Assembly (NCBI GenBank): GCA_028692655.1
Contig: JAQUWY010000007.1
Span: forward strand, 1 to 62,952
Length of the DNA: 62,952 bases
Reading direction: 5' to 3'
Origin: Candidatus Omnitrophota bacterium
GTDB taxonomy: Bacteria > Omnitrophota > Gorgyraeia > Duberdicusellales > 4484-171
The notes beneath the pieces are model-generated. The model did no database searches and was not told the DNA's origin. It was given only the letters and a program-made list of their open reading frames with translations. Below are positions 62 through 4,413 of the stretch, piece after piece. The position numbers and the translations under genes are program-made. The first letter of the stretch is position 1; each line of letters opens with the position of its first letter.

Positions 62-559
62 TCATCTTTTTTCAATCAAACTTCTTAGTTGTTTTCTCTT
101 TGTCCTCTTTGGAAAAACAGATGGGTAACCTAAAGCAATTACTGCCTCAAGCTCTAAATTCTTAGGAATTTTGAAATACCTGCGTAATTCATCTTTCTGA
201 TTGAGAATTTCACCCAGCCAGCAAGCACCTAACTTTTGAAAGTGAATATAAAGAAGCATGTTCTGAATACAGGCACCGATGGCCATTAAATCTTTTTCTC
301 GGTTATAAGAAGCCTTTTTATCCAAAAACACCAGGATGGCTTTATCCGCTTCTTTTATAACACTGCTGTAATGAGTAAACTCAGCCAATGAGTCTTTCTT
401 GGCCTTATCTAAAACCAGAAATTTCCAGGGTTGATTATTCAATCCTGAAGGTGCCCAGCGGCCGGCTTCTAAGATTTCATCAATTAACCTCTTGGCAATG
501 GTTTTCTTTCTAAATTTACGTATTGAGCGGCGGGTTTTGATAAGCCTTGAAACACTCAT
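62..559 (-). CDS. Nitroreductase family protein
   Basis: RRSIRKF and APSGLNNQPWKF motifs, GACWLG segment. Confidence 0.9.
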   Translation of the reverse strand: MSVSRLIKTRRSIRKFRKKTIAKRLIDEILEAGRWAPSGLNNQPWKFLVLDKAKKDSLAEFTHYSSVIKEADKAILVFLDKKASYNREKDLMAIGACIQNMLLYIHFQKLGACWLGEILNQKDELRRYFKIPKNLELEAVIALGYPSVFPKRTKRKQLRSLIEKR

Positions 560-754
560 ATCTATTAACCTCCTGGAGTTGAATGTTTATTGTATTCTAA
601 AACCGCCCGGATTTCAAACAATACTTTCGGGCTTTCTAACAAGCTTGAATTTATGTATTATTGGGGGTATATTGATAATAGCTTTATTTTAACTACATTT
701 TGCCCAATACCAAACTTTATATTGGTATTGGGTTTTTCTGGGAAAACTCCGTTA

Positions 755-773
755 GTTGATTTTTGTGTTATAG
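755..773 (+). mobile_element. Right half of attC-like (or attI-like) site; start of cassette 1
   Basis: GTTGATT-tttgt-GTTATAG; GTTATAG is the exact reverse complement of CTATAAC at 1616, as expected for the two ends of one cassette. Confidence 0.55.
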
Positions 774-800
774 GTAAATAATAAATAGGGGAAGAATAAA

Positions 801-1190
801 ATGAATTTTTGGGGAAAGATATCTAAAGTGTTATTAAGCTTTGGCGAAAGTCCGGCGGAACGAAAGATCAAAGAATCCACAATAGAAAATTGGTATCTAC
901 ATTTATCCGAAGAAGACCGAAAATTCTTCCCTGATAAGTCCGCGTTTGAAAAGGGCTTCCGTGATGTACCTGTGCGAAAAGTTGATCTGGCATTCCAAAT
1001 CTATCAAAAAGAAGCGAATGGACAGATGGAGAAAGAACCTTTATCGTCGTCTGACAAAACTCTTGTTGAGAATGCCTATCTAGCCGGTTATCATCAAGCT
1101 AAAGAAGAGTGGAAATGGTCAAAAGATGAGGCATGCAAAAGAGGTGATCAGGTCGCTTGGTTTGCATTACATATTTATAGATATTGTTAA
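801..1190 (+). CDS. Hypothetical protein (cassette 1, ORF1)
   Basis: 129-aa ORF, purine-rich RBS-like GGGGAAG upstream; no family recognised. Confidence 0.7.
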   Translation: MNFWGKISKVLLSFGESPAERKIKESTIENWYLHLSEEDRKFFPDKSAFEKGFRDVPVRKVDLAFQIYQKEANGQMEKEPLSSSDKTLVENAYLAGYHQAKEEWKWSKDEACKRGDQVAWFALHIYRYC

Positions 1191-1207
1191 TTCATAGGTA
1201 ATAAAAT

Positions 1208-1609
1208 ATGAGAAAATACATTGATGACATAACCGCAACTCTTGCCAAATTTCAATACATTGAGGAATTTCTTCGCATGTATATACAAAAAGTAAATAGC
1301 AGAATCAGAAAAACAATGAAGGGGAAAATACCCTACAAATACAGCGAAAAATGGGTTAAAAAAGATTCCTTAGGAACATTGATAGATAAATTTGAAAAAA
1401 ATAATGACAACAAAATTTTAATCAAAAGATTAAAAAGCTTAGTTCCTGAACGCAACAAAATAGCACATAAGGGGTTGTTAATCACTAGAGACCAGATTGT
1501 CAATGTTTCTTCTGTAAAATTAAAAAAAGAAAAGCTAAAAAAAATACGCATAAGTGCTGGAGTAGCACTAAATAGAATAAATGATGAAATAAGAAAAATT
1601 GAAAAATAA
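1208..1609 (+). CDS. Hypothetical helical protein with HEPN-like RNKIAH motif (cassette 1, ORF2)
   Basis: 133-aa ORF containing ERNKIAH (R-x4-H). Confidence 0.55.
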   Translation: MRKYIDDITATLAKFQYIEEFLRMYIQKVNSRIRKTMKGKIPYKYSEKWVKKDSLGTLIDKFEKNNDNKILIKRLKSLVPERNKIAHKGLLITRDQIVNVSSVKLKKEKLKKIRISAGVALNRINDEIRKIEK

Positions 1610-1615
1610 ATAAAC

Positions 1616-1845
1616 CTATAACAGCTCAATCCAGCCGACCTAAGCCGCCGGCTGGTTGAGGATATCGTAACATTGGGCCGTCGAAGTTGCTATTTTATAA
1701 AGAATTTGTGTCCGGGCGCCTGAATATCGGGTTAAATCTTACTCAACTTTGTTTCGTAACTTTTAACCCGAAGCGCCTCGGACATAGTTCAGCTAATCCC
1801 GGCCTTCGGTCGGGAAAGTTTCAATAGCTAATTTTTGTGTTAGGC
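1616..1845 (+). mobile_element. attC-like site A (unusually long)
   Basis: CTATAAC-5nt-AATCCAGC ... GCTAATT-5nt-GTTAGGC directly after a stop codon; extra C in L'' equals extrahelical G on the bottom strand. Confidence 0.6.
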
Positions 1846-1858
1846 CAACGAAATAATA

Positions 1859-2446
1859 ATGGATAAATTTCCAAAACGGAAACTGACTAGATTAAAAAAA
1901 TATGATTATTCACAAACAGGCTATTATTTTGTAACCATCTGCACACAAAACCGCAAAGAAATATTCGCATCGATTAAAAATAATCAAATAATATTAAACG
2001 AATTCGGCAGAATTGTTAAAAAATCATGGTTGCAAATACCCGAACATTTTAAAAACATCGAATTGGATAAATATATAATAATGCCCAACCATATCCATAC
2101 AATTATAAATATTGTAGGGGCGGGGTCACCCCGCCCGTTAAAAAACCACGACAATGATGATAACAAAATAATTGGGTATAGTATCGGGCGAGGAAACCTC
2201 GCCCCTACAAAATTGGGCCAGGTTATGGCATTTTTCAAATACCAGACAACAAAACAAATAAATAAATTACAAAATAGGCCAGGTATAAAAATATGGCAAC
2301 GTAGATATCATGACCACATTATCCGTAACGATAAATCATTGAATAGAATACGTGAATATATTGATAATAATCCTAAAACCTGGGATAATGATATTGAAAA
2401 CCCCATTAGGTTAGGTGCAATAGAATCGGAATTGATTAATGTATAA
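1859..2446 (+). CDS. REP-associated tyrosine transposase (RAYT, Y1 HUH family)
   Basis: RLKKYDYSQTGYYFVTICT, MPNHIH (HUH), WQRRYHDHIIR, YIDNNP. Confidence 0.9.
   Translation: MDKFPKRKLTRLKKYDYSQTGYYFVTICTQNRKEIFASIKNNQIILNEFGRIVKKSWLQIPEHFKNIELDKYIIMPNHIHTIINIVGAGSPRPLKNHDNDDNKIIGYSIGRGNLAPTKLGQVMAFFKYQTTKQINKLQNRPGIKIWQRRYHDHIIRNDKSLNRIREYIDNNPKTWDNDIENPIRLGAIESELINV
2114..2208. repeat. Inverted GTAG-type REP doublet inside the RAYT ORF
   Basis: GTAGGGGCGGGGTCACCCCGCCC (2114-2136) and reverse-oriented GGGCGAGGAAACCTCGCCCCTAC (2186-2208). Confidence 0.8.
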
Positions 2447-2614
2447 CAACTCAATCCCCGCCTTCGCGTAAAGCTATGGCGGGCAGGCAGCCGGCTCATT
2501 CGGCGCGCTCCTTGGCTTTGTCAAGTCGCTTACTCAGAGCAAGCTCCCCTGCAGCTAAAGCGGTTTACCCTGAGCGAATGAAATGAGTCGAAGGGCTGAT
2601 TTCGGGTGTCAGAA
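2441..2614 (+). mobile_element. attC-like site B carrying two palindromic insertions
   Basis: GTATAAC-aactc-AATC[31 bp insert]CAGC ... GCTGATT-6nt-GTCAGAA; overlaps RAYT stop codon. Confidence 0.6.
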
Positions 2615-2628
2615 ATAAAGAAGCGGTA

Positions 2629-3021
2629 ATGAGAAAAATAACTACAATTACTTTCTTGATAGCAATAAGTGTCTTCTTTAATAACTGCTTATTTGCCCAG
2701 CAGAAAAACACCGAATGCAAGAAGCTGAAAAAAGAGATAAAAAGCCTGATCAGTGAATGCCAAAGCTGTGAAACTGATGGAGAATGCTTTGTGGATGAGA
2801 GTTTGATTATAGGGTGCCCCTTTGGGTGTGATTTTATACGCAGCCATAAATTCGATAACAGTAAATATTTAACTTCAATTAAAATAGAAATTGAGAAATA
2901 CAGTGATGTATGCGAAAAATGCCTGTGGGATTGCGACGTTACACCCAAAAAGCAGGAAGTTGGCTGCCGCCAGGGCAAATGCGTGGATTTAAGATATTAT
3001 TCCGGGAAGAATCTGGATTAA
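2629..3021 (+). CDS. Secreted cysteine-rich hypothetical protein (cassette 3)
   Basis: Hydrophobic N-terminal signal-like segment; 11 Cys in mature region. Confidence 0.7.
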   Translation: MRKITTITFLIAISVFFNNCLFAQQKNTECKKLKKEIKSLISECQSCETDGECFVDESLIIGCPFGCDFIRSHKFDNSKYLTSIKIEIEKYSDVCEKCLWDCDVTPKKQEVGCRQGKCVDLRYYSGKNLD

Positions 3022-3028
3022 AAGATAA

Positions 3029-3457
3029 ATGAGGCTTTGGTCAATACATCCAAAATACTTAGACACAAAAGGGCTGCTTGCGCTCTGGCGGGAGGCTTTG
3101 CTGGCAAAAAAAGTGCTGCAAAATAAAACCAAAGGTTATAAAAAACACCCCCAGCTTCTGCGTTTTAAGAGTCAGAAAAACCCCGTTGGCGCTATAAATT
3201 ACTATCTTTATGAAATATTCAAAGAATCCAAAAAAAGAGGTTTTAATTTCTCCTGCCGCAAGGCCTGTTCTATATCTAAAAAGAGTTCTATTACCGTAAC
3301 AAGCGGACAAATAAAATATGAATTCAGCCATTTACTGGCTAAGTTAAGAAAAAGAGATGCGGTTAGGTATCGCTTGTTTAAAAATACTAAAAGAATAAAG
3401 GTGCATCCTATATTCAGAAAAAAGAAGGGCGAAGTAGAACCCTGGGAGAAATTGTAA
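3029..3457 (+). CDS. Pyrimidine dimer DNA glycosylase (T4 endonuclease V-like)
   Basis: MRLWSIHPKYLDTKGLLALWRE and HPQL motifs. Confidence 0.9.
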   Translation: MRLWSIHPKYLDTKGLLALWREALLAKKVLQNKTKGYKKHPQLLRFKSQKNPVGAINYYLYEIFKESKKRGFNFSCRKACSISKKSSITVTSGQIKYEFSHLLAKLRKRDAVRYRLFKNTKRIKVHPIFRKKKGEVEPWEKL

Positions 3458-3486
3458 AGCAGAAGAACGCATAGTAAATACAACCA

Positions 3487-4413
3487 CTAAACCCACCAGT
3501 AGCCTAATTCTTTCAAAATTCTTGGCCGGTGCTGCCAATCACTAAGAACCTTTACCCATATCTCAAGATATACTTTCTTATCGTAAATCTTCTCTATTTC
3601 TGAACGAGCCAAGGTGCCTATTGCTTTAAGGCCACGGCCCTGCTTGCCAATTACTATCTTTTTCTGAGAATTTCTCTGCACATATATTGTTACTTCTATA
3701 TGCACCACCTTTTTCCTGTCTTTTATGGCTGATACCTCTACTGCTACTGAATGGGGCAGTTCCCTGTCCAAGGCCAGAAAAAGCTTTTCCCTGACAATAT
3801 CGGCTATTCTAAACTGTATAGGAAAATCGGTCAGAGTATCTGTATCATAGAATGGGCCTGATTGCGGAAGATTTTCAAGTAAAGCCGCTCTAAGCTCATC
3901 TATATTCTTGCCGGTCTTGGCTGAAACCGGAATAAACTGTGCTGAAGGTTTTTTACCAACTTTTTCATCCGCCTTTTTTTGCCAAGCTTCAATGTAGCTA
4001 TTTAGATATACGGATTTTAGGTCTATTTTATTTAAAACCATGATTACAGGGATATTTTGAGTACTGATAATATCCATTAAGCGGGATTCTTCTTTGCCGA
4101 TGCGCCGAGAAACATCAACAACATACACAATAATATCGCTACCTTCTATCGAGCGTTTGGAAATAACATTGAGATGCTCAGCCAGATGGTCCTTGAAAGA
4201 GTGCATCCCGGGAGTATCCACAAATACTATTTGAGCTCCTTCTAAATTTAATATACCTCGTATCTGATGCCGGGTAGTTTGAGGAATGGGAGAAATGATA
4301 CTTACTTTCTCTCCTACTAAAGCATTCATCAAAGTAGATTTTCCTGTATTCGGCCGGCCTAACACCGCCACAAATCCTGCTTTAAATTTTTTTTCGCTTT
4401 CTTTTGTTATCAT
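3487..4413 (-). CDS. era: GTPase Era
   Basis: GRPNTGKSTL, PQTTR, DTPG, NKID, C-terminal KH domain with GKQG. Confidence 0.97.
   Translation of the reverse strand: MITKESEKKFKAGFVAVLGRPNTGKSTLMNALVGEKVSIISPIPQTTRHQIRGILNLEGAQIVFVDTPGMHSFKDHLAEHLNVISKRSIEGSDIIVYVVDVSRRIGKEESRLMDIISTQNIPVIMVLNKIDLKSVYLNSYIEAWQKKADEKVGKKPSAQFIPVSAKTGKNIDELRAALLENLPQSGPFYDTDTLTDFPIQFRIADIVREKLFLALDRELPHSVAVEVSAIKDRKKVVHIEVTIYVQRNSQKKIVIGKQGRGLKAIGTLARSEIEKIYDKKVYLEIWVKVLSDWQHRPRILKELGYWWV

Follow-up and report, generated by a model that had tools for sequence, protein, structure and literature searches.

We found that a gene for a RAYT-like nuclease in a 62,952-nt stretch of DNA from a Candidatus Omnitrophota bacterium (GenBank assembly GCA_028692655.1, contig JAQUWY010000007.1, positions 1 to 62,952 of the forward strand, hereafter the window) is probably the cargo of a former integron gene cassette (about 1840-2608), a reading to which we give a probability of about 0.72 from sequence comparison. 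The cassette lies between a nitroreductase gene and era, in a short array which resembles a CALIN, that is, a cluster of attC sites without an integrase. The original prediction for this locus held that a RAYT transposase had been packaged as a gene cassette and that integron recombination could spread an enzyme which mobilises repetitive extragenic palindromic (REP) sequences. As a route of spread this stood up in relatives of the gene, which are found in attC-bounded units, but not in the window, where the copy is degraded and no integrase was found. The window copy is a decayed cassette in an array without an integrase and not an active example.

Membership of the attC class was judged by explicit structural rules together with homology, and 11 attC sites from class 1 integron plasmids (estX, psp, aadA2, cmlA1, aadA1, qacL, dfrA12, VIM-1, aac(6')-Ib, arr-3 and dfrA16) served as the yardstick. 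The register of an attC site was defined as R'' (7 nt), a 5-nt spacer, L'' (3 bp, a bulged base and 5 bp), L', a 6-nt spacer and R' (7 nt). The clinical sites, the sites of the window and the sites beside RAYT homologues all aligned in this single register. Because a loose helix score had a background of 4% at arbitrary open reading frame (ORF) ends, it was replaced by a strict-register test of 3 bp, one bulged base and 5 bp, in which known attC sites score 7-8 out of 8.

Integron crossover is expected at G|TT of the R' core. GTTAGGC lies at 1839-1845 with 13 nt between the motif and the ATG at 1859, so the A of the start codon is the 14th base past the motif, in agreement with the start noted originally, 14 bp after GTTAGGC, and the RAYT stop codon (TAA, 2444-2446) falls within GTATAAC at 2441-2447, an overlap that had also been noted. 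The limits of the cassette were set at the TT of GTTAGGC (1840) and at the G of GTCAGAA (2608-2614). As marks of a cassette the two motifs were confirmed in position but not in frequency: GTTRRRY was counted 83 times in the window, below the expectation of 117 +/- 11 in shuffled sequence. Taken alone, the boundary 7-mers carry no weight, and the support comes from the architecture and from the relatives.

Site C, the predicted attC of the RAYT cassette itself, consists of R'' GTATAAC (six of the seven consensus RYYYAAC positions), the spacer AACTC, an L'' (AATC|C..CAGCC) which 31 nt interrupt, L' GGCTGATT (2594-2601), the spacer TCGGGT and R' GTCAGAA. Removal of the 31-nt hairpin at 2457-2487 restores TATAACAACTCAATCCAGCCGG, as found in site B (TATAACAGCTCAATCCAGCCGA) and in the sites of homologues. 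Only then does the L box reach 8/8 with a bulged C, equal to aadA1, psp, cmlA1 and aac6Ib; one other 8/8 L-box site was found in 126 kb (the 63-kb window, both strands). L boxes of this type were observed across genomes, AATC[C]AGCC/GGCTGATT in the window, AATC[C]AGCG/CGCTGATT at the homologous locus L107 and CATC[C]AGCG/CGCTGATG at L006, indicating that the gene and its site were inherited together, as expected of a cassette. Site B, which belongs to the upstream unit, has its R'' CTATAAC (1616-1622) 7 nt past the stop codon of a HEPN-like ORF, followed by the spacer AGCTC, L'' AATCCAGCC, L' AGCTAATT, the spacer TTTTGT and R' GTTAGGC. This R' is an intact GTTRRRY core, and the RAYT cassette has its left boundary there. 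The L box of site B is 6/8 Watson-Crick paired on the top strand, and on the bottom strand its two mismatches become G.T wobbles.

RAYT homologues bounded by attC sites were identified at several loci. Two of these, L108 and L109, which come from two samples, share a 660-bp block of 100% identity which carries a RAYT (P0004) 58% identical to the window protein. The block starts with GTTAAAC, 16 nt before the ATG, and ends in ...GAATTCCAG, 1-2 nt before GTTAGAA in L108 or GTTCGCC in L109. Its flanks are unrelated, with a VapB cassette following in L108 and a 66-amino acid (aa) ORF with its own 57-nt attC (GGCTAAC...GTTAAAC) preceding the block in L109. A shared block with breakpoints at the R' cores is the signature that a mobile cassette would leave. 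In L110 the ATG of the RAYT gene (50% identical) comes 7 nt after GTTAGCT, the gene is followed by an attC (ATCTAAC...GTTAGAT) with an R box of 7/7, and a second ATCTAAC site was observed after the next ORF. At L107 (62% identical) a canonical attC (TCCCAAC...GTTAGCC) lies upstream of the RAYT gene, and the downstream site reads GTCTAAC CAGTA AATC[C]AGCG...CGCTGATT TATTAT GTGGGCA. The L006 RAYT (55% identical) is found just after ftsA in the order PNPOx-attC-RAYT-attC-DsrE-TrmO-attC, with a RAYT remnant beyond, a context which was identical in four assemblies. In the site which follows the RAYT gene the R' core begins with GTG in L107 and with GTT in L108, L109, L110 and L006, and two to three attC-type sites stand in series in L110, L109 and L006.

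The bottom-strand folds of the sites at L108, L109 and L110 and of the upstream site at L107 were more stable than shuffled sequence (z -2.3 to -4.2), like the aadA1 control. In the well-folding sites of the homologues the R box is closed, an internal loop and an L box are present, and on the 3' arm a T and a G bulge out at a distance of 6 nt. Genes other than RAYT are also followed by sites of this design, namely the 66-aa ORF of L109, a 104-aa ORF of L107, PNPOx and TrmO of L006, the next ORF of L110 and the HEPN unit of the window. In the protein tree all members of one clade (95/92) with readable context, L107, L108/L109, L003 and L006, were attC-associated, and L110 fell outside this clade. 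A scan of metagenome contigs yielded one further clear cassette (L110) and a weaker candidate on two contigs (L132/L133), the other matches being distant members of the family. Of the features proposed as the test of the original idea, flanking attC sites were thus found for the homologues at L108/L109, L110, L107 and L006 and variable neighbours for the unit of L108/L109; most members of the wider family are REP-flanked and some close homologues sit in operons.

Two of these loci contain further features. At 6499-7039 of L006, past TrmO, the RAYT remnant consists of about 45 N-terminal codons running into a pair of GTAG hairpins, and the attC-like site before it (AGCTAAC..GTTATAG) overlaps the TrmO stop codon and has an L'' (ATTCCACCTGACCC) equal to that of the L108/L109 RAYT attC. 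At L003 (2754-5817) a 188-bp direct repeat (85-88% identical) precedes each of an amidase gene, a 167-aa ORF, the RAYT gene and one more gene. Each copy starts directly behind GTTAAAA or GCTAAAA and includes a hairpin with a T-run as well as an AT-rich, promoter-like part, and the design of this array is unlike plain attC spacing. The site downstream of the L003 RAYT, which has an R' of GCT and is followed by the 188-bp repeat, was kept as attC-like only.

A number of observations weigh against the cassette reading. Weight matrices built from the left and right halves of the 11 clinical attC sites did not score the window sites above shuffled sequence (left halves of sites B and C, 10.1 and 8.8 bits; shuffle maxima, 13.8 +/- 2.2), a failure which is expected because attC sites are defined by structure. 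Site B folds as three separate hairpins rather than one, with a strong competing local hairpin at 1623-1660, then GTAACAT, and a long palindrome at about 1700-1790. Site C as it stands does not fold better than shuffles on the bottom strand (z -0.5), and its R' carries GTC and not the invariant GTT. Site A, whose right arm is homologous to site B (repeat 740-770 versus 1812-1842), was rejected as a true attC as it is without an L box, and its helix score was 3, compared with 6.5-13 for known attC sites. The loose helix criterion is, as stated, reached at 4% of arbitrary ORF ends. No attC follows the last unit of the array, which ends 30 nt from the era stop codon. The exact cassette of the window was found in one context only, and the window RAYT was not placed within the well-supported attC-associated clade. 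A tblastn search with IntI1 (E <= 0.01) found no integrase in the 63-kb window or at about 180 other loci, a lack which is compatible with a CALIN. In register the flanks agree with attC, but neither is a plain attC site: both are mosaics with palindromic modules, and the downstream core is GTC.

The palindromic modules of the flanks (2444-2499, 1725-1791, 2562-2600 and 1784-1842) were also looked for in Logan contigs of four landfill runs. All four turn up again in several other landfill contigs, in different surroundings but at a similar depth (about 9-14x), a further point against the cassette reading, and the stretch 2444-2491, which includes the 31-nt hairpin, was present in no fewer than 5 further contigs from runs X1 and X2. 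No further copy of the modules was found elsewhere in the window. This pattern fits both related attC sites elsewhere in the genome and small palindromic elements lodging in attC hairpins. One copy of module 2562-2600 abuts an apparent tRNA 3' end (loose end CGAGGGGATTTGAACCCCC).

The recurrence of the modules in other contigs also speaks for an account in which the flanks are small palindromic repeats piled up between the genes of a variable region (REP-like, terminator-like or similar to miniature inverted-repeat transposable elements), the RAYT is an ordinary resident and the TAAC/GTTA cores are coincidental. That sites B and C are not single hairpins, that the 7-mers are at chance frequency and that the weight-matrix scores lie within the shuffle range would be accounted for as well. 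We nevertheless regard it as unlikely, since the flanks match attC in register, the L box is common to the window, L107 and L006 at an equal place from the RAYT stop and is 8/8 once the insertion is removed, and the L108/L109 breakpoints fall at the cores. Unlike dispersed REPs, the modules have no second copy in the 63 kb, and similar attC sites forming a family in a single genome, as the Vibrio repeats do, would give an equal read-mapping picture.

Excised circles had been proposed as a check, but a joint in the metagenome contigs which was considered as a candidate did not bear this out. A 153-nt contig joins 2421-2491 to 1650-1716 (a step back of 842 nt), and it was rejected as a circle junction as the joint is not at R' cores. 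There are 15 extra letters at the joint and mismatches of 8/71 and 5/67 on its two sides (13 in total). Judged by these differences, the contig is a paralogous RAYT 3' end with its site.

The same contig, in which a second RAYT 3' end is followed by a related hairpin, can be taken as support for another account, in which the hairpin after the RAYT stop codon is the substrate of the enzyme itself (an IS200/IS605-like end, or a new REP with a TAAC guide) and the gene is, or once was, moved by its own HUH/Tyr chemistry rather than by an integron integrase. Recognition by Y1 enzymes of single-strand hairpins that carry bulged bases is known (PMC8266576), in the window, L107 and L006 the RAYT and the hairpin have been inherited together, TAAC stands on both sides of the 1623-1660 hairpin, and the failure to find an integrase with IntI1 in the window and the other loci would also be in keeping with it. 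We consider this account very unlikely, mainly because sites built in the same way stand behind unrelated genes of these arrays and because the breakpoints lie at G|TT. In addition, the T and G bulges, with their spacing of 6 nt, match the pattern of IntI substrates, and the cognate repeat of the wider family is of the GTAGGGGCG type and not of a TAAC type. As to features of IS200/IS605 elements, no second RAYT copy was found in the window, the metagenome held the one paralogous 3' end with its hairpin, and such hairpins occur after non-RAYT genes as well.

The locus itself varies between close lineages. It was found again in GCA_028715335.1 (contig JAQUSC010000071.1, L001), a metagenome-assembled genome of Omnitrophota from a landfill metagenome, which could be read no further upstream because the contig breaks inside the nitroreductase gene. 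Two other relatives (L095 and L096; Era 99% identical, DNA about 90% identical over PilZ-era) align only as far as window position 3489, the era stop codon. Since homology ends exactly at this codon, the region beyond it is variable between close lineages, a point in favour of the cassette reading. Both relatives carry another gene beyond the codon; at L095 (1882-3037) a gene for a 223-aa lipoprotein-like product stands where the window has the array. The G+C content is 0.34 in 1001-2000 compared with about 0.41. That the block 560-3460 is the remnant of an island acquired whole (by phage, integrative and conjugative element or homologous recombination), with attC-like relics from the donor and no cassette event here, is in line with the lower G+C content, with the relatives of 90% nucleotide identity that are without the whole block beside era and with the degradation of all three sites, but it is highly improbable as a rival, as neither an integrase nor a tRNA nor the edge of an island was seen, homology stops exactly at the era stop codon, and an island is compatible with a cassette origin and would only shift the recombination to the donor.

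The cargo gene of the proposed cassette (1859-2446) encodes a nuclease of the Y1 HUH type which belongs to the RAYT/IS200 superfamily. The protein matched Pfam Y1_Tnp with 27.4 bits (cut-off 23) and NCBIfam REP_Tyr_transpos with 72.1 bits, under the equivalog cut-off of 80, and the latter match was broken into two stretches because of a 30-aa insert. A PDB search with the RAYT sequence alone gave no match, and it was a profile of 24 homologues which matched E. coli TnpA-REP (PDB 4ER8) with E 3e-5, aligning the invariant REYIxxNP with ..DYIYINP and PNHIH with PEHMH. The window protein carries the HUH motif PNHIH (H78, H80) and the Tyr motif REYIDNNP (Y167), and these three residues were invariant across the alignment of 24 homologues. 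As the motifs align with those of 4ER8, the catalytic motifs are intact, and since they have been kept the protein is probably still an active single-strand DNA nuclease.

Within the RAYT ORF lies a doublet of GTAG-headed hairpins, which is kept at the DNA level in the window and in L107, L108, L006, L003, L091, L093, L010 and L092; in the L110 ORF only the first hairpin was found at the matching place. Among homologues, compensatory changes were seen in the stem of the second hairpin (GAGG/CCTC, GCGG/CCGC and CACGG/CCGTG). This co-variation suggests that a DNA or RNA structure is under selection and points to selection of the hairpins as nucleic-acid structure, beyond the encoded peptide VGAGSPRP...GRGNxAPT alone.

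The gene belongs to a large family (over 3,200 clusters at E <= 1e-5), which is described here from 79 loci of distant members (37-49% identity), sampled broadly from many phyla among the matches listed. Here GTAG-headed hairpins (GTAGGGGCG...CGCCCCTAC) were found within 300 bp downstream of the gene in 45/79 loci and upstream in 35/79, which agrees with the original statement that RAYTs usually sit beside REPs; GTAGGG or CCCTAC occurred within the ORF in 71/79, and TAAC was found at the stop codon in 3/79. The window had been described as having no flanking REP arrays, and this is true for the REP type of the family: GTAGGGGCG occurs twice in the 63 kb, both times inside the RAYT ORF, and no REP population was seen in the window. 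Likewise, in accordance with the description, terminal inverted repeats as expected of insertion sequence (IS) ends were not seen at the RAYT locus. By the loose criterion an attC-like site was present at the stop codon in 11 of 162 RAYT loci, against a background of 4.1% at other ORF ends, and by a stricter helix in 5 of 162, against 0.9%; the association with attC in the RAYT family is therefore real yet limited to a minority.

Other close homologues occur inside housekeeping operons, as SpoVG|RAYT|DprA in L091 (423-959), ComM|RAYT|YraN in L093 (3144-3689) and CCA enzyme|RAYT|Macro in L010 (5001-5549). The spacers of these operon RAYTs are 0-11 bp or the genes overlap, too tight for a recombination site. 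In the DprA-ComM-YraN operon the RAYT was seen at two different junctions in two genomes.

The features of the array and of its two flanks are collected in Table 1. All three units of the array, that of the RAYT included, face one way, and the last is without an attC. The 133-aa ORF of the upstream unit matched PF18735 HEPN_RiboL-PSP weakly, with 24.5 bits, under the cut-off. Small ORFs, this HEPN-like ORF and the VapB gene in L108 are neighbours typical of cassettes. A perfect 12-bp hairpin followed by TTTTTCT at 702-743, within site A, is terminator-like on the + strand, with no + strand gene upstream. A promoter and terminator scan gave nothing decisive, and a Rfam scan of 500-3600 had no match, the IntegronFinder attC model not being part of Rfam.

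Table 1. Features of the array between the nitroreductase and era genes (positions in the window)
Feature	Position	Strand	Description
Nitroreductase gene	62-559	-	Left flank of array; Pfam PF00881, 102 bits
Site A	634-773	+	attC-like ends TTCTAAC ... TTTTGT GTTATAG; doubtful attC or remnant
Upstream two-ORF unit	801-1609	+	129-aa ORF without family match; 133-aa HEPN-like ORF
Site B	1616-1845	+	230 nt; attC-like site of upstream two-ORF unit
Proposed RAYT gene cassette	1840-2608	+	TTAGGC through G of GTCAGAA; limits by analogy with the 660-bp unit of L108/L109
RAYT-like Y1 HUH nuclease gene	1859-2446	+	195 aa; Pfam, NCBIfam, family profile, invariant residues
Two inverted GTAG+hairpin (REP-like) units	2114-2208	+	Inside RAYT ORF; inverted repeat; encode VGAGSPRP ... 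GRGNLAPT
Site C	2441-2614	+	Putative attC of the RAYT cassette, degraded
31-nt hairpin CCCGCC..GGCGGGCAGG	2457-2487	+	Splits L'' of site C exactly beside the bulged base
Downstream unit	2629-3457	+	130-aa Cys-rich ORF; pyrimidine-dimer DNA glycosylase gene (PF03013, 82.8 bits)
era GTPase gene	3487-4413	-	Right flank; Pfam

In the sequence of events that we favour, the RAYT unit would have come in when an integron integrase, which may be encoded elsewhere or may since have been lost, recombined an attC folded from the bottom strand. It would later have been immobilised by the insertion in L'' and a GTT-to-GTC change in R'. Because the 31-nt hairpin splits L'' and the cleavage triplet is GTC instead of GTT, the window copy is probably stuck. 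That a cassette could seed REPs in a new host and so couple two mobile systems is pure inference. A functional partnership of cassette-borne RAYTs with attC arrays, in which they found a REP/REPIN population in a naive genome or nick or mobilise folded attC-like hairpins and so open to CALINs a route of mobilisation independent of IntI, seems quite unlikely; were it true, a RAYT acting on attC hairpins would explain as well how small palindromes came to lie within the attC sites of the window.

RAYTs have served as the model for a transposase that has been domesticated, is passed on vertically and has ceased to move itself (PMC5581495; bioRxiv 10.1101/2021.07.10.451892). Should a RAYT lineage travel as a cassette, this would give a concrete horizontal route for REP-generating enzymes, and an enzyme acting on single-strand hairpins would have joined the cargo of a system which itself works on single-strand hairpins. 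The attC-type arrays described here are documented in Omnitrophota beside core genes (era, and the dcw cluster in L006). In the literature on RAYT/IS200-type Y1 enzymes together with integrons or attC sites we found no RAYT described as cassette cargo, and the main surveys of RAYT/HUH diversity that were checked do not mention integrons. The RAYT is apparently, on the strength of this literature, a real and unreported class of cargo for integron cassettes, and the route of RAYT transfer, which the original prediction had suspected to be undescribed, is apparently unreported too.

Integron cassettes, and CALINs as attC clusters without an integrase, are well described (IntegronFinder, PMC4889954). 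The array in the window shares with them units of one or two ORFs without promoters and, behind these, an imperfect palindrome of the form R''-spacer-L''...L'-spacer-R', a stop codon within R'', a next unit which starts from the TT of GTTRRRY, and what seem to be extrahelical bases on the R''/L'' arm. The ORFs run in one direction, no integrase is nearby, toxin-antitoxin-like and unknown small ORFs are part of the cargo, and in the RAYT relatives one unit is found in different arrays. It differs in its cargo, a HUH nuclease of the RAYT family, and in its sites, which at 140-230 nt are long and which are interrupted and in part mutated (GTC), with no attC after the last unit; the host phylum here is Omnitrophota.

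RAYT or TnpA-REP enzymes are known together with populations of REPs or REPINs (Nunvar 2010; Bertels & Rainey 2011, PMC3116915; Bertels 2017, PMC5581495; structure 4ER8). The window protein resembles them in its HUH and Tyr motifs and in the profile match to 4ER8, and the wider family has flanks with GTAG-headed hairpins. In contrast to these systems, the window gene is without flanking REPs and has GTAG hairpins only within its ORF, it lies in a variable array and not at a conserved locus, and its NCBIfam score is below the equivalog cut-off.

Mobile elements which target attC sites include the IS1111-attC group and the group IIC-attC introns. Group II introns have been described in integrons (PMC7923331). 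The 31-nt hairpin in L'' of site C and the module of site B fit the pattern of small elements lying within attC hairpins. The inserts in the window differ in being palindromes of 31-70 nt without coding capacity, and their mobility is putative. Also comparable are IS1004 of the IS200 family in the Vibrio cholerae superintegron (PMC4032106) and ISHahl1 beside a Halorhodospira CALIN (PMC7923331), where, as here, a Y1 HUH transposase gene is tied to an attC array and elements dependent on single-strand hairpins cluster together. Those elements have IS ends of their own, whereas the window RAYT is without IS ends and is delimited by attC cores.

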